NCBI GenBank assembly: GCA_029856145.1 | Contig: JAHQWK010000020.1 | Location: 32,001 to 96,000 of the forward strand | Direction of reading: 5' to 3' | Length of the DNA: 64,000 bases | Source: Promethearchaeia archaeon | Lineage (GTDB): Archaea; Asgardarchaeota; Lokiarchaeia; Sigyniarchaeales; SOKP01 | Shown: one piece after another, positions 23,018 to 50,383 of the stretch | Layout: each line of letters begins with the position of its first letter | Numbering within the stretch: position 1 is the first letter of the stretch | Program-made: the position numbers and the translations under genes | The notes under the pieces: model-generated | What the model was told of the DNA's origin: nothing | Database searches by the model: none | Seen by the model: only the letters and a program-made list of their open reading frames with translations

Positions 23018-26000
23018 TTATTTTTTTAATTTCCATTGTCTTTTACCCATTTTTGATTCAACTAGAACTTTTTCTTTACGTTCTAATTCCTTGAGTTTAA
23101 GCTGGAGATATCGGGCATCCATCATATCTTTAATTTTTAATTTGAAAATGAGATGCTTAATAGTTTGCCATTCATCAGATAAAACATTTAATATTTTTTC
23201 AGTTGTTATGATAGGTAATGTAGTTTGTTTTTGTTTTGGGGGTACTGGTTTATGTATAGGTGGAGTCTTTTTAGGAGTTACCTTACTTGGCGTTTTTCCT
23301 TTAGAAATTGGCAATTGCACTTGTTTTACAGGTATAGTATAGGGACTAACTTTAACTGGTTCTGGAGGTTTTAATTCTATTGGTTTTACTTCAATAGGTT
23401 TTTTATATGATTCTATAATTTTGCCAATAATAACTGTTTTTGTGTCTTTAGATAATAGGCTAATATTATAATCATTACAATATTCAATTAATTCGGTTTT
23501 TGTCCAATTTTTAAGTGTTTTCTCAGTGAATAATTCTTTTTTAGTTTCAACTTTCTTAGCAACTGGTTGTAATTCAGAGGGTTTTTCTATCACTTTTTCC
23601 TTTTTAATAGCAGTTTCTTTAATTTCTCTTGCTTCTGAAGATTTCACAACAGGCGTAGGTTTTTTACCTATTGCGTTCCTCATTAAATCTTCCAATTCTT
23701 TTTTGTCAAGCTTAGATTTATGTATACTCTCACCTTGAGACGCAATATTATATAGGCTGTTAACAAATATTGGTATATATTTTTCTATTAGGCTAGCTCT
23801 CTTTTCGCTTTTACGAAGATTTGCTTTTCTATTGAGATATATTCTTAATCTTCTTCCTATTGCTTCAAGGCAAAACTTAATTTCTTTTATTAAATTTTCA
23901 TCATCAGCCAATGCGTTTTTTGATTGGGATTTAAACATTAAATGCACAAAAGGTCCAGAAACATTAACTAATAATTTTATTGGTCCTTTTGGCAAGCTAT
24001 TATCATAAGTATCAAGGTTGTAGTTTTTCCAATTAACTGCTTGAACTGCTTTTGTGATAGCGCAATCTGCACTATCTCTTAATTTCGGTGTTCTATTTAC
24101 AAATCTAGATAAAACATCCCTAGACCGTTTGGGAACTTCTAAATTTCTTGAATAAGCCAGTACAGCTTCTACAACATAAGCTAAACCTTTTCCACTTGTG
24201 GGTGCTCTTGTTTCTGCTGCTACAAAATCATCATCCTTCGTATAGTTTTCAATGAAATATTCAAATACACCATGGTAGGTATCTATAGAATCTATGTCAG
24301 AGTAAGTGAGAAGATCATCAATAACTTGTTTTACTTGCTGTTGATCCGTTATTTCATCAACGATATCAATGGTTCCCAATATCTCTGAACCTAAATTAAT
24401 GACCTCTTCTGGATTTATTGAAATGTTAATGATTGCATCATCATCAATCTTGATCCCTTCTTCTAATAACGTTCTCTTTTTGTCTTCATGTAATAATTCA
24501 AATATCTGATTAATTTTATCAACGGGTCCAGCAAAGTCATCTATATTTTCTGAAATTCTTAATCCAATTTCTTTAATTAAAGTATTCTCCAGAGTTGAGC
24601 CCCCTACTGGAATTGCTGTGTCCGTTGGAGGAGCCATATACTTGATAGATTTAAACGCTAGGAATAGAGAATTAAACTGTTCTTTTGTTAATTCAATAGG
24701 TTTAACTTTAGATATAAGGACTTTATTAATAAGATCTTCAAAATCTGTTCTGTTTTTTAACTTTTTTAACTCAATCAATCCTTCTTTTGAGTCTTTAAAC
24801 AATGTGTTTAAATCTACTTTAATTTTATCCTTTTGATTTCTAATATCATCTATCTCTTTCAATAATTTTTTAATTTCTCTTTCAATATTCTTTATTTCTT
24901 TTTGAGTTTCAGTTTTTTCAATACGTTTATTTAGTTTCTTTATTTCTTTGTTTATTTTTTCGTAATCTTTATTGGATTTATTGTAATTAGTGATTAATTT
25001 CCAATAATTTTCTTTTAGATCTTCTGATGCGACTTGATAAATAATTAATTTATCTCTCGGTTTATCAGAACGACCGAAAACCCGTTTTTCATTTATCATA
25101 AAGTTTATTGTATCTGTCTTTTTCTGTGCTAAATTCACAAATCCCTCTTTTAGAATAAGTAAATTTAATCGGTCCTGAAGATCTCTTTCAGCAATATAAA
25201 TAATTTCTTTAGCTGTTTTTGAACTCATTCTTACAAAATTATCTTGTAAAAATGCAGAAATTGATTTATTTTCTGATTTTGTAATTAAATCTTGTAGGTC
25301 CCCTATATTAACTGAGGAAGGATGAGACTTAGCATATTTAGGTTCGTCTGGGAAAGAAGTTGCTAATCTTCGGTAAATTTTCTCCTTTCCCTCTGGATCA
25401 ATATAAATAATTGTCACATGAGGATTCATAAATGCAGTTTCTTCAATATATTTCTCAACATAACCTCTGACATATTTTACATTTAAATAATTCAATTTAA
25501 TATAAGTACCATGAAGAAAAAAGCTGTCAATATCTGTTGGATGAATTAAATACTTTTTCTCATTTTTAGATGTGGTAAAAAATTCTGTTACTGTAGCATA
25601 AACATTGTCAATTGATTTTGATACTGTGATAATAGGTTTACCAGTTGTATTTTGAGCATCGCTAAACGCGCTTGGGGCTCCAAATCCTTGACTACCTCTA
25701 GTTTGCTTTAATTCCATAGATTTTGATGAGGCGAGATATTTTCCAAATTTTCTTAGATCAATTTTTGACATTCCAGTCCCATTATCGAAAATTTCAAAAG
25801 TATAACTCATGATATTTTTCTGACTGATTTCAGACGTTAAAAAAGATTGTGCTTCATATTCTCTAATACGAACCCCCACTATTGGTTCTACATCAATGAT
25901 ATATTCAACGGGTTTAATGATTTCTTGCATATCATCTATTATTCTTCTAACTTCTTCTTCTACTTCCAATTCTTCTTTATCACTTATTTCTCCAGATTCT

Positions 26001-26386
26001 TCCTCTTTTTCTTCTGGCACTTGAATACTAGATTGGTCTGGTTCAACAGATTCAATACCTAATTCCTGCATTAACGTATGTTTTGCTTCATTATTTAAAG
26101 TTTGAGATTTTTTTTCTTCTTTTACTGTTTCAAGTATAGAAAATTTTTCTAAAAATAATTCTTGGTCTAATGAAAATTTAATTTTGGAATCTGGTTTTTT
26201 CAATTCTTTCCATTGAAAACTTTCGATGGCATCTAAGGCATTATCAATAAATTCAGCACAATATTGAACATGTTTCCAATAGCCAAATTCGAAACCAACT
26301 AGTTGAGTCCGCTTACGCATAAACTCAGCTATTGTTCCTTGCTTTATTTTTCCTTCTTCTTTTGAAGTAATTTTGGACGCACTCGT
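23018..26386 (-). CDS. top6B: DNA topoisomerase VI subunit B, greatly enlarged (more than 1100 aa)
   Basis: GHKL motifs EFIDNALDA, DNGTGM, TRGSQGFG; H2TH; transducer RFVNRTPKL, VNWKNYNL, FKSQSK. The conserved strap (KIKQGTIAEFMRKRTQLVGF) begins upstream of ATG 26320, so the start is placed tentatively at ACG 26386 (or ATT 26395). Confidence 0.92.
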   Translation of the reverse strand, partial: TSASKITSKEEGKIKQGTIAEFMRKRTQLVGFEFGYWKHVQYCAEFIDNALDAIESFQWKELKKPDSKIKFSLDQELFLEKFSILETVKEEKKSQTLNNEAKHTLMQELGIESVEPDQSSIQVPEEKEEESGEISDKEELEVEEEVRRIIDDMQEIIKPVEYIIDVEPIVGVRIREYEAQSFLTSEISQKNIMSYTFEIFDNGTGMSKIDLRKFGKYLASSKSMELKQTRGSQGFGAPSAFSDAQNTTGKPIITVSKSIDNVYATVTEFFTTSKNEKKYLIHPTDIDSFFLHGTYIKLNYLNVKYVRGYVEKYIEETAFMNPHVTIIYIDPEGKEKIYRRLATSFPDEPKYAKSHPSSVNIGDLQDLITKSENKSISAFLQDNFVRMSSKTAKEIIYIAERDLQDRLNLLILKEGFVNLAQKKTDTINFMINEKRVFGRSDKPRDKLIIYQVASEDLKENYWKLITNYNKSNKDYEKINKEIKKLNKRIEKTETQKEIKNIEREIKKLLKEIDDIRNQKDKIKVDLNTLFKDSKEGLIELKKLKNRTDFEDLINKVLISKVKPIELTKEQFNSLFLAFKSIKYMAPPTDTAIPVGGSTLENTLIKEIGLRISENIDDFAGPVDKINQIFELLHEDKKRTLLEEGIKIDDDAIINISINPEEVINLGSEILGTIDIVDEITDQQQVKQVIDDLLTYSDIDSIDTYHGVFEYFIENYTKDDDFVAAETRAPTSGKGLAYVVEAVLAYSRNLEVPKRSRDVLSRFVNRTPKLRDSADCAITKAVQAVNWKNYNLDTYDNSLPKGPIKLLVNVSGPFVHLMFKSQSKNALADDENLIKEIKFCLEAIGRRLRIYLNRKANLRKSEKRASLIEKYIPIFVNSLYNIASQGESIHKSKLDKKELEDLMRNAIGKKPTPVVKSSEAREIKETAIKKEKVIEKPSELQPVAKKVETKKELFTEKTLKNWTKTELIEYCNDYNISLLSKDTKTVIIGKIIESYKKPIEVKPIELKPPEPVKVSPYTIPVKQVQLPISKGKTPSKVTPKKTPPIHKPVPPKQKQTTLPIITTEKILNVLSDEWQTIKHLIFKLKIKDMMDARYLQLKLKELERKEKVLVESKMGKRQWKLKK

Positions 26387-26646
26387 ATGATTAATTCTTC
26401 ATTTAACATTATTACAACAATCTATAAATATATATACATCTATTAGTAAATTAATTGACAAAACTATAAGATATTATATATATATCTTAATTCCATAGTT
26501 TTCAATTATCTACTCGAACTTTACAATATTATTCACTGTTTACAGTAAATAAACTAATATTTAAATATTTTCATCAGATTTTAAATCATAAAAATAAGTA
26601 AGTATACATCCGAAAAAAATTTTCAAAAATCCATTTAAACTTAATT

Positions 26647-41510: not shown

Positions 41511-42320
41511 TTATCCTTCTCCTTCTTCATTTCCGTGTAGAGATTCAGTTTCAGTAGAGAGTTCATTATCATCTGGGGTTTCACTACTCGATACTTCTTC
41601 AATTCCTAATTGTGTAACCATAGCACGTTTCAAATCAGTTTTATTTTTTGGTAACCCAAACATATCTGCATATTTATCAGTGGTGGTTAGTTCGTGGGAT
41701 CTTCCCTTTTTTACAGCATTTATAAACCCATTATCTATGAGATATTTTACATGTTCATATGCGCCAGTACCTCTCAATTTAATAACCATTGATTTCAAAA
41801 CTGGCTGCTTCAAAGCAATAACTGTTAAAGTTCTCAAATATCTTTCTGCTATTGCTCCTCCTTTAGCAAATTTAGAAACTTTTTCAGTATATTCTGGTTT
41901 AATTTGCATTTGATATCTATCTCCAATTTGTGCAATGACAAGAGCAGTAGAGCGTTCTAAATAATCAAAAGCTACTTCATTTACTAATGCTTCCACTTCT
42001 TTCTTAGGAAGTTCCAATTTTGTCGATATTTCTTCTATGGTTAGGGGTCTTCCAGCAGCGTACAAAGAAGCTTCAATTAAATTTCGATGGAAAATCCTTA
42101 CTTGGTTTTTTAATAATTCTTCATCAAGAATTGTGGTTTCCGAAGTGTCTTCAATCAAATTGGTTTGTAAATCATCTTCTATATCTTCGGCTTCCTCAAA
42201 TTCTTCTATTAATGGAGTTTCTGATTTTAAACTAGATTCTCCACTTAAATTAATTTCTTCTATTTTTTCTAAATCTTCTTCTTGTTTATCATCAAGAGCA
42301 TTTTCGTGATTTTCTTCCAA
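41511..42320 (-). CDS. scpB: Segregation and condensation protein B (kite subunit) with acidic N- and C-terminal tails
   Basis: IEASLYAAGRPL, LRTLTVIALKQPV, LRGTGAYEHV, TTDKYADMFGL. GGTGA SD before TTG. Confidence 0.93.
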   Translation of the reverse strand: MEENHENALDDKQEEDLEKIEEINLSGESSLKSETPLIEEFEEAEDIEDDLQTNLIEDTSETTILDEELLKNQVRIFHRNLIEASLYAAGRPLTIEEISTKLELPKKEVEALVNEVAFDYLERSTALVIAQIGDRYQMQIKPEYTEKVSKFAKGGAIAERYLRTLTVIALKQPVLKSMVIKLRGTGAYEHVKYLIDNGFINAVKKGRSHELTTTDKYADMFGLPKNKTDLKRAMVTQLGIEEVSSSETPDDNELSTETESLHGNEEGEG

Positions 42321-42361
42321 ATTATCACCATATTTTATAATTAATCCAATAAATTTAGTTT

Positions 42362-43363
42362 TTATTTAACATTGACACTAAAATCTTGAAAATCTTCAAC
42401 TTGAGACAGAGTTAATTTATTCCCAGTTGATAGGAACATTAATGCTAGAAACATACGGACAAAAGAAAATATCCGCCCAATACCACTTTTCTCTTCATTT
42501 TTAATAATATCTGCCAATTCGTAAAATGTAGGTTCTTTATTATTTAGATTAATCGTAGCCTTAATTCGATTGTACCATGATTCATGCAGTTCTTCTACTG
42601 TTTGTTCTCTTCCGCTTATATGTTTAAGAAGTTCTTTAGGGAGTTGTGCTTTAGATTTCATTTGAATCCTTTGTTGTTTTATTTCTTCTTTTCTCATTCG
42701 TCTTCTTCTTAGTTTTTCTTTATTCTGCATAACTTCTATAATAGCAGATCTCATAGCATCAAATAATTCATCTTTTGTGGCTATTTGCATTTTAGGTTGA
42801 ATTGGTTGAGGTAATGCTTTTGGAATGGTCCTACCATGTGCTTGCCTGAATCTCTCCAACTCTTCTCTTTTTTGAATTTGTTCCTCTTCTCTAATTATAC
42901 TTGAAATTTTATAATGATGTAAAACTGCAGAAGTTTTAAGCGCAATTCCCGAAATTTTATAATTTATCAAGTCTTCGTGGAGCATTTTATCGAAAAATTC
43001 ATCAACTAATTTTGCTAAATCATAAAACGCAATTTCTGATTCTTTTGCTATTTCCGAATCTAATAGACTCGAAAATGGTGGTTTTTGCCAGAATTTTAAT
43101 TCAAGCTTTTCTTTCCTCAATAAAGCAAGATCTTCCTCATCATCAAATCCAGCAACTAGTTCTTCTTCTACTTCTTCAATTTCTTGAGATCTATCTGTAA
43201 ATTCAGGATGGGATACGACCTCTTGAAGTAAATCAATTATTTCTTTTTTCTTAGATTTAGAAGGTATTTTTATATTATTTTTCGAGGCAAATTCCTTGAG
43301 TTGTTTAACAGTCCAATCATTAAAATTATATTTTTTAGTAGAATTTTGTTCATTTTCTGATAT
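42362..43363 (-). CDS. scpA: Segregation and condensation protein A (kleisin) with an extra N-terminal HeH/SAP-like module
   Basis: Kleisin N-domain (YDLAKLVDEF...SGIALKTSAVLHHYK) and C-terminal FLALMFL...LSQVEDFQD. The frame is open 81 codons upstream of TTG 43120 to ATA 43363, 6 nt after a GGTGA SD; in-frame TGA lies within that SD. Confidence 0.85.
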   Translation of the reverse strand: MSENEQNSTKKYNFNDWTVKQLKEFASKNNIKIPSKSKKKEIIDLLQEVVSHPEFTDRSQEIEEVEEELVAGFDDEEDLALLRKEKLELKFWQKPPFSSLLDSEIAKESEIAFYDLAKLVDEFFDKMLHEDLINYKISGIALKTSAVLHHYKISSIIREEEQIQKREELERFRQAHGRTIPKALPQPIQPKMQIATKDELFDAMRSAIIEVMQNKEKLRRRRMRKEEIKQQRIQMKSKAQLPKELLKHISGREQTVEELHESWYNRIKATINLNNKEPTFYELADIIKNEEKSGIGRIFSFVRMFLALMFLSTGNKLTLSQVEDFQDFSVNVK

Positions 43364-43390
43364 ACAATATCACCATTTTATATAATTTAA

Positions 43391-46300
43391 TTATTCTGTA
43401 ATCGTTGGTTCGACATCTTCCAGTTCAAGAAGTCTCTTGGCTTCCTCTTCTAAATCAACACTAAAAATATCTGTTATTCCACTTTGTTGCATTGATACGC
43501 CGTATATTCTATCTGAATTCACAATATTTTCTTCTCTGTGAGATATAACCATAAATTGAGCCTGCGAAGCGAATTCTTTTATGACCATTGAAACACGGTG
43601 AACGTTTGGACCATCGAGCGCAGCATCAATCTCATCCATTACGTAAAATGGAGCAGGATAAAATTCTTGAACTGCAAAAATGAAAGATAATGCTACAAGC
43701 GTTTTTTCCCCACCACTTAAAATTTCTAGTGAACTAATTTTCTTACCTCTTGGTCTTGCTTCGATAGAAATACCCCCTTCAAAAGGTTTATCTGGCCTAT
43801 CTAAGATCATTTTTGCAGAACCCCCTGGAGATAATTTCTGAAAAATCCTTGAAAATTCCCGATTAATTTCATGATAAGCTTTCATGAAAGTGCGAGTTTT
43901 TTCTAACTCAATTTTATCAATCGCATCAAGAATTGACTTTCTTTCTCTTTGAATTGTCTGTCGCCTCATATCTATTTCATCAAATCTTTCTTTGACTGTG
44001 TCATATTGTTGAATTGCCTTCAAATTCACGGGTTCAAGAGTTTTTTTCTTTTTTGTTAATTCCACGATATCCGACTGTAGTTCTGCTTCAATAAGATCAT
44101 CAGTTACTGGCGGCAATGAACCGTATTCTTTAGAACGCTGAAATAAGGTTTCTATTTGGTCAGTACACATTATCTTTTTGGACTCATAATTATTTATTTT
44201 AGAATTTTCCATAGAAAGATCTGATTTTAAATCTGTTATAACTTTCTGATATTGCTTTTGCTTTTTCCATGATTCATCTTTTTCTTGTATATACTTGTCA
44301 ATCTCTTTTTGTTTTTCATCTTTCTTCGCATTTTCATTAGCTAAATCTTCTTTCAATATTTCTAAGTCTTTTGTTATTGATTCAACTTGTTCTTCAGTAT
44401 CCTTTATATCTTGACCCAATCCTATTATCTTTTGTTCTCTCTCTTTATTTTTATTTAATTCATTTAATTTCCCTTGAGATCTTTGTAAATCTTTATTTAA
44501 TTTATTTAATTTTTTCTGAGCTGCTTTTTGAGATTCTAACTCTTGAGATTTTTCATCTCTTAAAGTATTTATAACCTGTTGCTTTTGATCTACATTTTTT
44601 TGAATTTCTTCAACTTGGGAATTTAATCCTTGCATATCATCTTGACAAGTCTTAATTCTATTATTAGCATCTACGTTCTCTTTTTTAATATCTTCAATAG
44701 TGGTGATAATCCTCATCACATTTTGAAGTGCTCTTAGACGGTCCATTGTATCTTCAAGGATTTTGTTTTCAGCATCTATCTGTTTTCGCAAATTCTCGGT
44801 TATTTCCCAGAAATTTTCTTTTCGAATAAGAAGCTCATCAATATTCTTTTGTAGTGAATTTTGTTCAACTTGAATATTTTTTATGTTTTCTTCTGTTTTG
44901 ACTATTATGTTTTTCTTTTCTTCAATAAGAAAATTCAATTTTTCTACATTACCATCAATCTCTACGATATTATCAAATAAATTCGTAATTCCGTGTAATT
45001 CTTGTAACTTTTCTCTTAAATTTTCTAATTCCTTTTGCTTTTTATCAATATCATCTTGAATTTTAGATATATTATCCCAATAGGTATCCTTAAGTTCTTT
45101 CAATTTAATTATCTCAGAATCCAAGTTATTGACTTCTAATTGTCTATTATCGATAATTTCCTTTCTTTCATTTATTTCTTCTTCTGCTTTTTTAATTCTT
45201 TCATTTAATTCAGATTTTCTTTTACCAATTTCTTCAAGTCTTTTATTATAAGATGAAAGGTTTTCAGAAAAATGCTTTACTTGGATTCTAGCCTCAGTTA
45301 ATTGTTGCTCATTTTTATTAAAATCATCTGTTTGAGATTTAATGCTTGCTGAGATCTCTTCCAATTGTTTATATAATTCTTGGCTTTTAGACATAGTTAA
45401 TTTTCTTAAAGAGAGATATACATTTTCAAGAATTTCCATTAGGTCTTGAACAAAATTATCAAATCTAATCGTCGAAGATTGGACTTCAACATCAGCGGAT
45501 TCTTTTACTTTTTCGATTAATTGACTAATTGTATCATCAGCATTATCTGTAAATAACTTTAAAGTTTGCATAATAGAACTAAACATATTTGTCATTTCAG
45601 TAGGTTTTTCTGTATCGGCACCAATGTCCTCAACTGATTTCATAATATCAATTATATCTAGAATAAATTTTTTGAAATCTTCTGCAGAGGTTTCAATTGC
45701 TTCTGCATTTGATTGTTGTATATTACTTTTAATAGATTCTACTGAAATGTTAATATTCTGGGTAAGCATGTTTAAAATTTGAAGAATTCCGGTAATATCT
45801 TTTGTATTTTTATCATATTCTTCTTCAGAAACTTCAATTTTCTTAAGGAGATTTTCTCGTTCTTGTGAAAGATCTTGTAACCGTCTTTGAATATTTTCTT
45901 TTCTGGATTCAGATTTTTCTGATTCACTTGTGACTTTTGAAAGAGTTTTACTTAAGGAATCAATTTGTAGTTCTAATTTATTCTTTTCTCGATCTAATTT
46001 TGTTAATTCTTTTGTAAGGATTTTTAATTCTGTATTGATATTATCAATCTTTGCATTGTTATCATTGATTTCAGATTCAAATGAATAATTCTTCATTTTC
46101 ATTAATTCTAAGTCTTGTTCATTTTTCCTATAGATTGAGTTTTCTTGCTTTAATTTCACTTTTAGATCGTTTAAATCTTTGTTAATATCCTCATTTTCTT
46201 TCAATAATTCTTTTACAGCTTTTTCAGCATCTCTACCTTCACTTAAATCAGTAATTTTCTTCTCGATAGAAATTTTCTTTTCATTTAATTGTTGGATATT

Positions 46301-47842
46301 CGCTTGATTCATTTTAATTTCAGTATTTAATGATGATAAAGAAGCTTGAAAATCTGTCAATTTTGAATTTAATTGATTTTTTACTGCTTGAATACTATTT
46401 ATATTGTTTTCTAAATCTTTTTGACTTTGATTTTCTTTAGATATTTTGGCATTTAAGTCATTAATTCGTTTTCTAATTTCTGATTCTGTCTTTTTTGTTG
46501 CTTCAATGGCTTCATCAATACTTTCGGTATCTTTTTTCAATTTTTCTAGCTCAGTTTCTAATTTTTGCTTCTTTTCCTCATTCTTTTTTATAGTTCCTCT
46601 GAGCATCTTAATTTGAGCGTTATTAGATGAAATATTTTGTTGTATTTTGGAGATTTCTGCTTTAAAAAGAGATTTTTCATCATCAGTATTTTTTATTTGA
46701 AGATCCAAATCAGCTTGGTTTTGCTGTCTTTTTTCAATTTCTTTTTTGGCCTCTTCTATATGATTCTCATAATCTAAAATTTCATTTGAAACACTTTCTA
46801 TTAATGAATCAAAAGTTTGTCCCTCTTCAAGCTTCATTTGTTTACTTTCTAAAGTTCCAATTTCATTAACTAATTTTTCGATTGATTTTTGAGCTAAATT
46901 TAGTGTAGTTTGACTTGATGAAATTTGTGTCTTTACTTGGGTAATATTTTCAGTAATTTGCTCTCTCTCTTTTTCTTTCTCGGTAATTGTTTTTTGAATA
47001 TTATCCATAACAAGTGATTCTTGTTTTAAGATATCTTCTTGTCTATTGATTTTTTCTTGTAATTCTTCAATGATTTTTAAAGAATTTTCGATTTTTCTTT
47101 CTAAATCATCTTCCTCTTGCCGTAACTTTGAAATTTTTAAAGCAATCAACTGAGAATTTAAAAAATTTATTTGATCATCTAATTCCTTCCAAGCTAAAGC
47201 ATCGTTTTTCTCCTTTTCCACTTTTTTCAACTGAGAAGAAACTTCTTTAAAGATCGCTTCAAATTGTCCTAAATCTCTTTCTGCTTTTTCCAATTCTTTT
47301 AACGTAGCATCTTTCATTTCATCATATTTTTGAAGTCCGATTAATTCTTCAATAAATCTTCTACGATCTTCTGCATTCATATGAGTTAATTCCACAATTT
47401 TTCCTTGAAGGACAAATTGATTACTTCCATCTGGATCGATATTAGCCGCTGCTAACGCATTAAGAATTTGTTGGCGAGTAGTTTTTTTTCCATTCATTTT
47501 ATAGCCACCACCACCACCTCTCTTGATAGTTCGAGTAATTTCAAAATCAATGGTGCCTCCTGGAAAAGCATTTTCAGAATTATCGAAATATAGTGTGACA
47601 GAAGCTCTTTGAGAGGGATTTTTTCCTCTTGAACCCGCGAAGATGAGATCTTCAAGACTTTTTGCTCTCATAGTTTTCTTACTTAACCTACCTAACGCGA
47701 AACAAAGAGCATCTATAATATTAGACTTACCTGCCCCATTTGGTCCAACGATGCACGTAAATCCACTAGAAAGTCGAATTGTAACAGTTCTATCTCCAAA
47801 ACTTTTAAAACCACTCATTGAAATTTTTTTAATATAAGTCAA
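43391..47842 (-). CDS. smc: SMC ATPase, 1483 aa, with extended arms and no recognisable canonical hinge
   Basis: GFKSF, GPNGAGKSN Walker A, Q-loop VLQG, PVNLKA, signature LSGGEK, Walker B/D-loop MDEIDAALD, H-switch VISH. Directly upstream of scpA-scpB. Confidence 0.93.
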   Translation of the reverse strand: MTYIKKISMSGFKSFGDRTVTIRLSSGFTCIVGPNGAGKSNIIDALCFALGRLSKKTMRAKSLEDLIFAGSRGKNPSQRASVTLYFDNSENAFPGGTIDFEITRTIKRGGGGGYKMNGKKTTRQQILNALAAANIDPDGSNQFVLQGKIVELTHMNAEDRRRFIEELIGLQKYDEMKDATLKELEKAERDLGQFEAIFKEVSSQLKKVEKEKNDALAWKELDDQINFLNSQLIALKISKLRQEEDDLERKIENSLKIIEELQEKINRQEDILKQESLVMDNIQKTITEKEKEREQITENITQVKTQISSSQTTLNLAQKSIEKLVNEIGTLESKQMKLEEGQTFDSLIESVSNEILDYENHIEEAKKEIEKRQQNQADLDLQIKNTDDEKSLFKAEISKIQQNISSNNAQIKMLRGTIKKNEEKKQKLETELEKLKKDTESIDEAIEATKKTESEIRKRINDLNAKISKENQSQKDLENNINSIQAVKNQLNSKLTDFQASLSSLNTEIKMNQANIQQLNEKKISIEKKITDLSEGRDAEKAVKELLKENEDINKDLNDLKVKLKQENSIYRKNEQDLELMKMKNYSFESEINDNNAKIDNINTELKILTKELTKLDREKNKLELQIDSLSKTLSKVTSESEKSESRKENIQRRLQDLSQERENLLKKIEVSEEEYDKNTKDITGILQILNMLTQNINISVESIKSNIQQSNAEAIETSAEDFKKFILDIIDIMKSVEDIGADTEKPTEMTNMFSSIMQTLKLFTDNADDTISQLIEKVKESADVEVQSSTIRFDNFVQDLMEILENVYLSLRKLTMSKSQELYKQLEEISASIKSQTDDFNKNEQQLTEARIQVKHFSENLSSYNKRLEEIGKRKSELNERIKKAEEEINERKEIIDNRQLEVNNLDSEIIKLKELKDTYWDNISKIQDDIDKKQKELENLREKLQELHGITNLFDNIVEIDGNVEKLNFLIEEKKNIIVKTEENIKNIQVEQNSLQKNIDELLIRKENFWEITENLRKQIDAENKILEDTMDRLRALQNVMRIITTIEDIKKENVDANNRIKTCQDDMQGLNSQVEEIQKNVDQKQQVINTLRDEKSQELESQKAAQKKLNKLNKDLQRSQGKLNELNKNKEREQKIIGLGQDIKDTEEQVESITKDLEILKEDLANENAKKDEKQKEIDKYIQEKDESWKKQKQYQKVITDLKSDLSMENSKINNYESKKIMCTDQIETLFQRSKEYGSLPPVTDDLIEAELQSDIVELTKKKKTLEPVNLKAIQQYDTVKERFDEIDMRRQTIQRERKSILDAIDKIELEKTRTFMKAYHEINREFSRIFQKLSPGGSAKMILDRPDKPFEGGISIEARPRGKKISSLEILSGGEKTLVALSFIFAVQEFYPAPFYVMDEIDAALDGPNVHRVSMVIKEFASQAQFMVISHREENIVNSDRIYGVSMQQSGITDIFSVDLEEEAKRLLELEDVEPTITE

Positions 47843-48018
47843 AATTTATCTCCATTTCTACTCTTCATTATTAAAAAAATAGTGTGATTACACCTATAAA
47901 TATTATAATATACGATATAAAAAAAAACTAATTTTCGTTTTCCAGTTTTAAAAATGATACCCAGTTAATTTTTTCTACTCAAACTAAAAATTATCAGATT
48001 TTACATTAAATATTTTTA

Positions 48019-49209
48019 TTACTGATTAAAAATCGTATCAATTATAACCTTTATTTGTTTGGGGTTTATTATTGTAAAGAAAAAATCACAATTTATATTG
48101 TTAAAACCTTTATAAGCATTGTTTTTATAATTAGTTCTTTTTGAGGGTTTAATAATCCCCATATTTAACATCTCTTCAATTAGACTATAAAACTCATTAT
48201 TATTTTTTATACATTCTAAAGATTCACAAGAAAGTTCATAGCATTCCATTAATTCATTAAAGGAAATGTAATAATTCATTTTGCTTACAAAAAAATTCGA
48301 AAGATTATCTAAGAATACAACAGTTAATATATCCTCTTCCGAAAGATAATTTATTATGCTAAATTCATCAGAGATTTGAAATGTATCAAATTCATTCTGG
48401 CAAATTTCTAATAACTCAAAATTACAAGCCCCTTTATTATTTTTTATTGTTGGATATATATCTCGAAGAATTTCAATTCCTTTTCCGGGAACAGGGACAT
48501 ATTCTTCACAAATTAAATCTGTTATATATCTAATTAAGTCTTTATCAATTTCATGTGAAAAACTTAATAGAACTCTTTGTTTAAGAATAGAATAAAGCTC
48601 ATGATATGAGAAAAAGTCTAATTTATGTTTAAAATCAAATTCAGAAAGTAAATCCATTGTACCTGGTTTTAAAAATTTATTTACTGTAGAAATTAAAGTA
48701 ATATTTGTTTCTTTACTAAATTGTAAGAATTTATGAAATATTTCAGGCTCTAAATATTCAATATTATTAAAAATAAAGAACAAATGAGAATCAGTTTTAT
48801 TACAAATAAATTTAAAAGTATTCCATAAGTGGGCAATGTTTGAATTTAAGATGGTTCGATAATCGAAGTTAAAATTAGAAAAGCTTGTTAATTCATTTAA
48901 TAGTGAAAAAATTAATTCTTCAATTTCTTTTTCTTTGCAATCTACACAAACTTTATTAATTTTAAAACAATCTTTGTTTTGCATTAAAAGATCGTTTATT
49001 ACTTTATTTACTATTACTTTTTTCCCAATCCCATTCATTCCGTGATAAAGAACGTTAAGGCAAAACTCGTCAGAAATCGAATCATTTAAAATCGAAAGTA
49101 AAGAATTTTCTTCTTTTTTTCTGTATAATAAGCGTGGTGGGATATAATTTGGGTCAAAGAGAGCTTTGGGGCCTATATAATTTTTATTTACATTGGATTT
49201 TATTATCAA
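48019..49209 (-). CDS. Cdc6/Orc1-like AAA+ protein with degenerate ATPase motifs
   Basis: FDPNYIPPRLLYRKKE N-terminal motif and YSILKQRV lid motif. Walker A is GMNGIGKK, the Walker B position reads FIFNNIE, and there is a wH-like C-terminus. Confidence 0.78.
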   Translation of the reverse strand: MIIKSNVNKNYIGPKALFDPNYIPPRLLYRKKEENSLLSILNDSISDEFCLNVLYHGMNGIGKKVIVNKVINDLLMQNKDCFKINKVCVDCKEKEIEELIFSLLNELTSFSNFNFDYRTILNSNIAHLWNTFKFICNKTDSHLFFIFNNIEYLEPEIFHKFLQFSKETNITLISTVNKFLKPGTMDLLSEFDFKHKLDFFSYHELYSILKQRVLLSFSHEIDKDLIRYITDLICEEYVPVPGKGIEILRDIYPTIKNNKGACNFELLEICQNEFDTFQISDEFSIINYLSEEDILTVVFLDNLSNFFVSKMNYYISFNELMECYELSCESLECIKNNNEFYSLIEEMLNMGIIKPSKRTNYKNNAYKGFNNINCDFFFTIINPKQIKVIIDTIFNQ

Positions 49210-49426: not shown

Positions 49427-50383
49427 CTAATCAAAACTTTCTAATAAATTTTTTAAATTTTCTGCTAACAATGGTAAATATTCATAGGATTTAATTTTTA
49501 CTTTCTTATTTAAACAAAGCGCGACCAAATATAGTCTTGCATCTCCTATATCTAATTTTCTTAGAAAAATAATTCCTTCTTTTTGAAATTCTGAATGTTT
49601 CTCTGGAAATTCTACATTTGTTACAATATCAATTGTATTTATATCCCATTCTTCTAGTTTTTCTAATGCTTGAGTTAGCCTCGGAGCTATAGACTCGCAA
49701 ATTTCCTGATAAGCTTGATTTGTGCTTCTGCTAGCAATTATAAAACAATTCTGATCCAATAGCAGCGTAGAGCTATTATAAGTCTTGCCCATATAATCTT
49801 TCAGTAAGGTTTGAAACATTTCAGATTTGTGAGTAGCATAAAAAGCACCATCAGAGAAAGCCTTCAATAAACTTGGTTCATCATATATTGAAGTTTTTAA
49901 GATAGAAAATTTAACATCTTTAATAATAGATGAAATTTCATGATCTAAAGATTTGATGTTATTAACAATATTTTTATTATTTTTAATATCCGGATCACAT
50001 TTATGTAGTAAGATCAAGAGTTGAAAATTATCAGGGTGTGATTCTGAGGTAATATTTATTATATCTTTAAGAAAAACTAAGGCTTCTTCAAATTTTTTAG
50101 GTGCTTGGATATCTATAACATAAAAAATTGATTGCATTTCCGTAAAATACTTACTTTTTTCACCTATATATATTTTTCTATAACTCTTTTGACCACCTAA
50201 ATCCCAACGGACTATTGTAGTACCTAATAATGAGTTTGTATGAAGAGTTCTTTTTGCCTTTATAGTTGGTTTAACTGTAGTTAGTAAACTAAATTTCTTA
50301 TCTAATATTAATAAAATTGATGTCTTTCCACCACTTTCTAAACCACAGAAAAGTATTTTTTTATACTCTTTTGATTCGCTCAT
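49427..50383 (-). CDS. Arf/Rag-like small GTPase fused to a C-terminal roadblock/longin-like domain
   Basis: G1 GLESGGKTS, G2 KPT, G3 WDLGGQ, G4 HKCD, G5 TSI, then an alpha/beta C-terminal domain (STLLLDQNCFIIAS). Confidence 0.85.
   Translation of the reverse strand: MSESKEYKKILFCGLESGGKTSILLILDKKFSLLTTVKPTIKAKRTLHTNSLLGTTIVRWDLGGQKSYRKIYIGEKSKYFTEMQSIFYVIDIQAPKKFEEALVFLKDIINITSESHPDNFQLLILLHKCDPDIKNNKNIVNNIKSLDHEISSIIKDVKFSILKTSIYDEPSLLKAFSDGAFYATHKSEMFQTLLKDYMGKTYNSSTLLLDQNCFIIASRSTNQAYQEICESIAPRLTQALEKLEEWDINTIDIVTNVEFPEKHSEFQKEGIIFLRKLDIGDARLYLVALCLNKKVKIKSYEYLPLLAENLKNLLESFD

Follow-up and report, generated by a model that had tools for sequence, protein, structure and literature searches.

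A 64,000-nt stretch of contig JAHQWK010000020.1 from a Lokiarchaeia genome (GCA_029856145.1; positions 32,001 to 96,000), here called the window, carries a locus encoding a protein of the structural maintenance of chromosomes (SMC) type together with its presumptive partners. All coordinates are positions in this window, and all features of the locus lie on the minus strand. The source genome of 3.55 Mb is 97% complete; its nearest relatives carry the labels Promethearchaeota/Lokiarchaeia, and the database labels 'Thorarchaeota' and 'Hodarchaeota' on near-identical matches were taken as mislabels, judging from genome-taxonomy tallies. An earlier note had described four co-directional genes at 41511-49209, and four real minus-strand open reading frames (ORFs) were found there: a cdc6-like gene (48019..49209, 396 aa), smc (43391..47842, 1483 aa, TTG start), scpA (42362..43363, 333 aa from an ATA codon) and scpB (41511..42320, 269 aa). 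Co-direction alone does not make them one operon, because a stretch of 176 nt, which holds a conserved TATA-like element, separates the cdc6-like gene from smc. The conserved unit is smc-scpA-scpB, three genes whose order was retained in 15 of 16 diverse loci, within the reach of their contigs, and in 44/53 loci of close relatives. In one relative an opposite-strand gene of 1463 aa sits between smc and scpA (L039:12259-16650).

The smc product is of the condensin type. Its heads scored 608 bits with TIGR02168 (cut-off 567), PF02463 matched at both ends of the protein, and the ATPase motifs (Walker A, Q-loop, signature, Walker B, D- and H-loops) are intact and invariant in 17 orthologues. The hinge of SMC proteins has an alpha/beta fold. 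No match to the hinge family PF06470 was obtained for the 1483-aa protein at E ≤ 1, nor for any of the orthologues (0/17). In a control, the hinge was detectable in 20/20 other Asgard SMCs, 17 of which matched as whole proteins and three weakly, when the middle part was scanned alone. The sole hinge match of the source genome belonged to a different SMC, on contig C9. A CxxC hook was likewise not found in the apex or at the midpoint of the chain. Among the features that mark an Smc-ScpAB complex, heads, kleisin and kite are thus present at this locus and the alpha/beta hinge is not.

The midpoint of the SMC chain is occupied by a helical apex (45383..45823, residues ~674-820), for which AlphaFold2 (AF2) predicted an all-helical structure with no strands, at a predicted local distance difference test score (pLDDT) of 79.6. 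Two repeats at an offset of 71 aa make up the apex, with a variable loop at ~743-747 (hhalign 98.1%, E 8.8e-14). Its hydrophobic fraction is 0.37-0.38 compared with 0.21-0.28 in the coil flanks, and so broad a hydrophobic face could not be buried by a two-stranded coil alone. Against PDB sequences the apex profile gave nothing under E 0.06, and the model gave no Foldseek match at E ≤ 0.001; VIA-align returned generic four-helix bundles alone, among which designed proteins reached Z 16, and a search of the ESM Atlas yielded nothing informative. When 1.8 billion representative sequences were searched with a hidden Markov model (HMM) of the apex, it was found only in apex SMCs and in one family of headless proteins with two apex copies, apart from two repeat-rich chance matches.

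In a survey of 400 Asgard genomes the apex was present in four families of the order to which the source genome belongs (113/134, 1/1, 14/14 and 2/4 genomes), and outside the order we found weak matches and two probably misbinned contigs alone. The closed genomes of P. syntrophicum MK-D1 (WP_147661926.1, DSAG12_00820), L. ossiferum B-35 (UYP46603.1) and Ca. Harpocratesius repetitus (MCF2138850.1) all encode an apex SMC. The apex is not an artefact; intact full-length frames in more than 100 genomes, closed ones included, speak against an error of assembly or annotation. A strongly diverged ordinary hinge would be another explanation, and we consider both very improbable. Related Asgard SMCs do have decaying or shortened hinges, as if erosion were under way in this branch, but the apex is predicted to be strand-free where a hinge is alpha/beta; it is also built as a tandem repeat, and neither hinge HMMs nor PDB sequences match it. 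The proposal in the earlier note of a distinct Lokiarchaeial SMC with an apex other than a hinge is therefore upheld by the HMM searches, the structure model and the restriction of the apex to one order.

The headless two-apex proteins gave an indication of how the apex may dimerise. They are 920-1180 aa long and occur in 6/9 genomes of one family, the source genome not being among their carriers. The MK-D1 member (DSAG12_01461, L042:5981-8758; others in L040, L041 and L043) has Ig-like/beta-rich domains and a Lys-rich, histone-H1-like tail. Its two copies are homologous to the SMC apex (99.7% and 97.8%), and in its AF2 model (pLDDT 85) each copy forms a long extended hairpin. Four-helix-bundle templates span both copies, symmetric about both turns (ranges 107-409, 96-424 and 79-446); template 4uos, for instance, covers residues 79-446 with 188 aligned positions, a root-mean-square deviation of 3.2 and Z 13.2. 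The model suggests two hairpins lying side by side with their tips together, as the arms of an SMC rod would meet. A two-copy complex prediction of the apex itself scored 0.01, which is not evidence in either direction.

The alternative to such pairing is a folded-back, self-satisfied cap, in which case the chains would pair only through heads, arms and kleisin, or complexes would link tip to tip in RecN-style chains or filaments, and the complex would bridge or scaffold DNA without extruding loops. The closed four-helix bundle in the AF2 model of the monomer fits this picture, as does the reuse of the module in a headless, Ig-like, Lys-tailed protein of structural appearance. The fold-back, however, is what the 71-aa repeat gives when modelled singly, whereas the two-copy model shows extended hairpins; if hairpins pair in this way, the fold-back would simply result from the internal repeat. 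Together with the arms and the distribution of paralogues discussed below, this leads us to regard the folded-back cap as unlikely.

Both strands of the SMC arm are built from tandem modules, of 97-98 aa in the N-terminal strand (45941..46822) and of 90 aa in the C-terminal strand (44180..45142; W922, W1012 and W1192). The spacing of the head-proximal anchors is 1049-1055 aa in 16/17 orthologues, compared with ~765 aa in hinged SMCs, and the 17th orthologue is shorter by precisely two modules, one of 97 aa (residues 491-587) and one of 90 aa (residues 872-961). In Bacillus subtilis Smc, functional arms obey a period of 91 aa, and the protein still functions when a zinc hook replaces the hinge (PMC5344682). 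Since the whole-module indel and the fixed spacing fit the 91-aa period, the apex SMC seems to obey the mechanical limits that normally apply to Smc arms, and this natural indel in turn supports the 91-aa arm rule. Arms whose length is kept to full superhelical units, like those of Smc dimers that form rods, also argue against the folded-back cap. The arm length comes roughly close to modes given in the literature (515 and 423 aa), but this depended on the boundaries chosen and was not used.

The kleisin was identified by an Asgard ScpA profile that matched the solved ScpA 6ivh at E 4.5e-23 and this ORF at E 3e-73; the N-terminal helical and C-terminal winged-helix domains are present, and the gene is linked to smc. 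Gene callers begin scpA at TTG 43120 and so omit the first 81 aa; no ATG, GTG or TTG opens the frame ahead of that position. A putative start signal consists of GGTGA at 43370-43374 followed by 6 nt and ATA. The same arrangement, GGTGA, 6 nt, ATA/ATT/ATC (ATH) and a Ser codon, was seen in 24/28 relatives, and one has ATG at this place. Substitutions in the extension fall mostly on third codon positions (168/66/521). Given the conserved start and this codon-position bias, the N-terminal extension, whose production the earlier note had assumed, is almost certainly translated. In the source genome ATT and ATA account for 22/64 frame openings 6 nt past GGTGA, compared with a background of ~11%, which suggests that non-canonical ATT/ATA starts are common in this lineage.

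Within the extension, a HeH/SAP-like domain (43220..43324) is a candidate DNA anchor. Frame residues 16-50 matched Ish1 at E 2.6e-7 (over the cut-off), Rho_N at 1.3e-3 and HeH at 6.3e-3, and the domain, a profile match of ~35 aa, is under purifying selection. It is a feature of one family, found in ten of its genera and missing from one; MK-D1, B-35 and their kin have an ATG-started tail rich in Lys, Ser and Thr where the HeH domain lies. On the strength of the domain family and of its replacement by Lys-rich tails, it is plausible that the ScpA N-terminal tail is a DNA-binding appendage that comes in two unrelated forms. The basic helical insert KLRRRRMRKEE, which the earlier note had pointed out, is present in the middle region of the kleisin (42683..42715) and has counterparts in Hodarchaeales and in the sister order within Lokiarchaeia. 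Elsewhere in the window, a Top6B-like frame (23018-26398) runs for 1126 codons with no early ATG; the Top6B-like ORFs of relatives, of ~1100-1150 aa, match the HeH domain of ScpA weakly, and no HeH domain was detected in the frame of the window with the HeH HMM.

ScpB is the least unusual part of the locus and has an ordinary kite core (PF04079, E 2.7e-33 at residues 81-230; TIGR00281 over its cut-off). The acidic tails ascribed to it are there, 78 aa at the N-terminus and 28 aa at the C-terminus, each with 36% D+E. The N-terminal tails range from 78 to 175 aa and vary in length with no conserved sequence; other ScpB paralogues of Asgard archaea likewise have long acidic N-terminal tails, and NCBIfam includes a model for long-form ScpB. 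What the earlier note read directly from the sequence is borne out, but its view that each of the four genes departs from the standard pattern is weak for ScpB and for the basic insert of ScpA, both having counterparts in other Asgard orders.

The Cdc6-like protein is a degenerate Orc1/Cdc6 paralogue. TIGR02928 matched it at E 5.9e-14, far under the cut-off, and its family profile matched Cdc6 2qby at E 1.1e-12, the AAA+ Cdc6 scaffold being present; over the C-terminal region, where Orc1/Cdc6 initiators have a winged helix that binds origin DNA, it aligned only weakly with 2qby, and a match to 1fnn spans profile positions 16-360 at E 7.8e-5. Walker A ends in GKK and Walker B reads FNNIE, the DE pair of Walker B and the sensor-2 Arg being lost in 12/12 aligned proteins. 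The gene is single-copy and order-wide (108/116 genomes), and the source genome has two intact Cdc6 genes elsewhere.

Its position immediately upstream of smc and in the same direction in 65/68 close relatives could indicate a four-part system, in which an ATPase-dead Cdc6 serves as dedicated loader or positioning factor of the hinge-less SMC; across the order the two genes are found together, each in a single copy, and catalytic motifs that are degenerate throughout would make its role probably structural. Co-occurrence is, however, expected of any two order-wide genes, and other neighbours (the valyl-tRNA synthetase, nitrilase and HAD genes) are likewise syntenic within the family. The cdc6-like gene was upstream of smc in 0/11 loci from the other families and from one genus (g2) of the same family, and in the three closed genomes distances of 1.4, 1.9 and 2.7 Mb separate it from smc. 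Even where the two are adjacent the gap is 111-226 nt and they are never coupled. The gap contains an element with a conserved T-run, a TATA-like box and a second conserved block (47865..47930), likely the own promoter of smc; a scan for sigma-70 promoters, which is not meaningful for archaea, stayed at chance levels. As linkage to smc is not conserved beyond most of one family, an outcome that the earlier note itself had listed as refuting, the four-gene system suggested there is unsupported, and we hold a dedicated Cdc6 loader to be quite improbable. The Cdc6-like protein is probably a mere neighbour that does not belong to the SMC complex, though the two may still be tied in function without being linked. 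Directly upstream of its gene, at 49427-50383, lies a gene for a Rag/Arf-like small GTPase with an extra C-terminal domain; in the sister order, too, Rag-like genes accompany the SMC locus (L047, L048).

Two further SMC types were found in these archaea. The source genome has a second SMC operon on contig C9 (L010:6729-11381), with a divergent hinged SMC of 1153 aa, a kleisin-like protein of 218 aa and a kite-like protein of 171 aa, which fits the published SMC5/6-related class. A third type is hinged and condensin-like, 1196-1214 aa long, and encoded beside its own scpB, with a second scpA unlinked; it was found in MK-D1 (WP_147664559.1, its ScpA unlinked), B-35, H. repetitus, the deepest family and four genera of the source family. 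Genomes with this second hinged SMC also hold a second ScpA and ScpB, whereas the source genome has one of each. Such a paralogue could cover the ordinary condensin job in many genomes and leave the apex SMC free for a scaffolding role as a folded-back cap, but none was found in 45 genomes of the source genus. The apex SMC is apparently the only condensin-type SMC in that genus, and not in the cultured species. Two genomes of another genus (g7) contain stand-alone hinge ORFs (L124:7716-8432, 238 aa; L125:8021-8764, 247 aa) that have the look of leftovers of the hinged paralogue, or of a part of it put to another use.

In phylogenetic trees the apex-type heads grouped with canonical Asgard Smc. 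The apex set and the hinged set each formed a clade that tracks species branching; therefore both date to the ancestor of the order. Trees of SMC, ScpA and ScpB placed the apex genes beside two other Asgard lineages with supports of 80/90, 57/94, 81/87 and 58/92, and a clade of apex and hinged paralogues was not rejected by the approximately unbiased test (p-AU 0.127). With tree support this modest and with that p-AU, we claim no origin for the apex genes. Shortened or degenerate hinges were seen in Hodarchaeales (113 vs 136 aa), in the sister order in Lokiarchaeia and in one Jordarchaeales paralogue (L051, L053, L063, L047, L048, L049 and L061), which are the groups that the trees place closest to the apex SMC. 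Decay of the hinge before its replacement is possible in these groups.

We therefore propose, with a probability of about 0.68, that smc-scpA-scpB encodes a condensin-type Smc-ScpAB complex of one Lokiarchaeia order, a ring with an apex dimer and a DNA-binding tail, and that the Cdc6-like protein is independent of it. Two SMC chains would dimerise at the apex, most likely through two extended hairpins forming a four-helix bundle, and ScpA would close the ring at the heads. Cycles of ATP hydrolysis would power the capture of DNA and its extrusion into loops or its compaction, as in other Smc-ScpAB complexes. The N-terminal tail of ScpA, HeH in the source family and Lys-rich in MK-D1 and B-35, would raise the affinity for DNA, perhaps substituting for lost contacts between hinge and DNA. 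The Cdc6-like protein would be an independent, probably non-catalytic initiator paralogue, whose gene moved beside smc by a rearrangement in one family.

Several observations weigh against this proposal. The monomer model of the apex closes on itself as a self-contained bundle, and the proposed dimer geometry derives from the model of a homologous protein and from alignment ranges rather than from contacts. The hinged paralogue is present in cultured species, so that the apex complex need not be the main condensin there. In 9/53 close loci smc and scpA lie apart, while cdc6 and smc adjoin in nearly all close relatives. Finally, ScpB is not a binding partner of ScpA in euryarchaea (PMC7055376), so that synteny is the sole ground for counting the kite as a member.

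Several models of loop extrusion and loading assign the hinge an active role, in DNA binding, as an entry gate or by folding onto the heads, and a natural hinge-less condensin-type SMC kept throughout an order makes these models testable. MK-D1, B-35 and H. repetitus, with a hinged paralogue beside the apex SMC, offer an internal control. The picture of SMC proteins in the archaeal relatives of eukaryotes is also refined, with three complexes in this lineage, not two. More tentatively, and at somewhat less than even odds, the apex would be a new SMC dimerisation module, a chemoreceptor-like four-helix bundle within a kleisin-kite motor; the ancestor of the order would have had three SMC complexes, and the hinge-less one would have become the sole condensin in most of the source family, with a kleisin-borne anchor replacing hinge-DNA contacts.

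Among known systems, archaeal Orc1/Cdc6 (2qby) and the non-catalytic subunits of eukaryotic ORC share with the Cdc6-like protein the AAA+ scaffold and the Cdc6 N-terminal motif. It differs from Orc1/Cdc6 in having lost, order-wide, both acidic residues of Walker B as well as the sensor-2 Arg, and in a Walker A that does not keep GKT/S; evidence of kinship to ORC2-5 or of an SMC role was not found. The apex SMC is not of the SMC5/6-related, coalescin-like class, which is marked by an SMC5/6-type head, an Nse4-like kleisin and an Nse1/3-like kite: its heads group with canonical Asgard Smc, and it is the separate operon on C9 that fits that class. Rad50/SbcC with its zinc hook and the engineered Smc with a zinc hook (PMC5344682) resemble it in that a non-hinge dimeriser caps the SMC arm, but the apex SMC has no CxxC at the midpoint, its heads and partners are of Smc type, and Rad50 HMMs scored below 100 bits (cut-offs 700-1087). 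The closest analogue for the helical tip is RecN, an SMC-like ATPase that dimerises through apical helices and has neither hinge nor hook (PMC4255302). Its arms are a quarter as long, however, it works in break repair with no kleisin or kite, TIGR00634 gave the apex SMC 31 bits (cut-off 408), and no homology of the apices was found.

Heads, kleisin, kite, gene order and arm lengths that step by ~91 aa are those of Smc-ScpAB as known from B. subtilis and Pyrococcus (TIGR02168/TIGR02169, PF02463 with PF06470, PF02616 and PF04079). The SMC of the present locus differs in its missing hinge, its helical repeat apex and a length greater by ~290 aa, its ScpA in the HeH or Lys-rich N-terminal tail and ATH start, and its ScpB in acidic tails. 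An SMC-kleisin-kite operon of P. syntrophicum has been described as an archaeal complex related to condensin and cohesin by van Hooff et al. (2025; bioRxiv 10.1101/2024.01.07.573240), where the missing hinge and the apex go unmentioned. This is very probably the apex SMC operon, since in MK-D1 only the apex SMC has adjacent SMC, kleisin and kite genes in that order. A literature search, with subscription papers outside its coverage, found nothing relevant on hinge-less archaeal Smc. The system as such, put forward in the earlier note as a candidate for an undescribed one, has therefore already been published in its gene set, while its apex, its modular arms and the tail of its kleisin appear to be undescribed.

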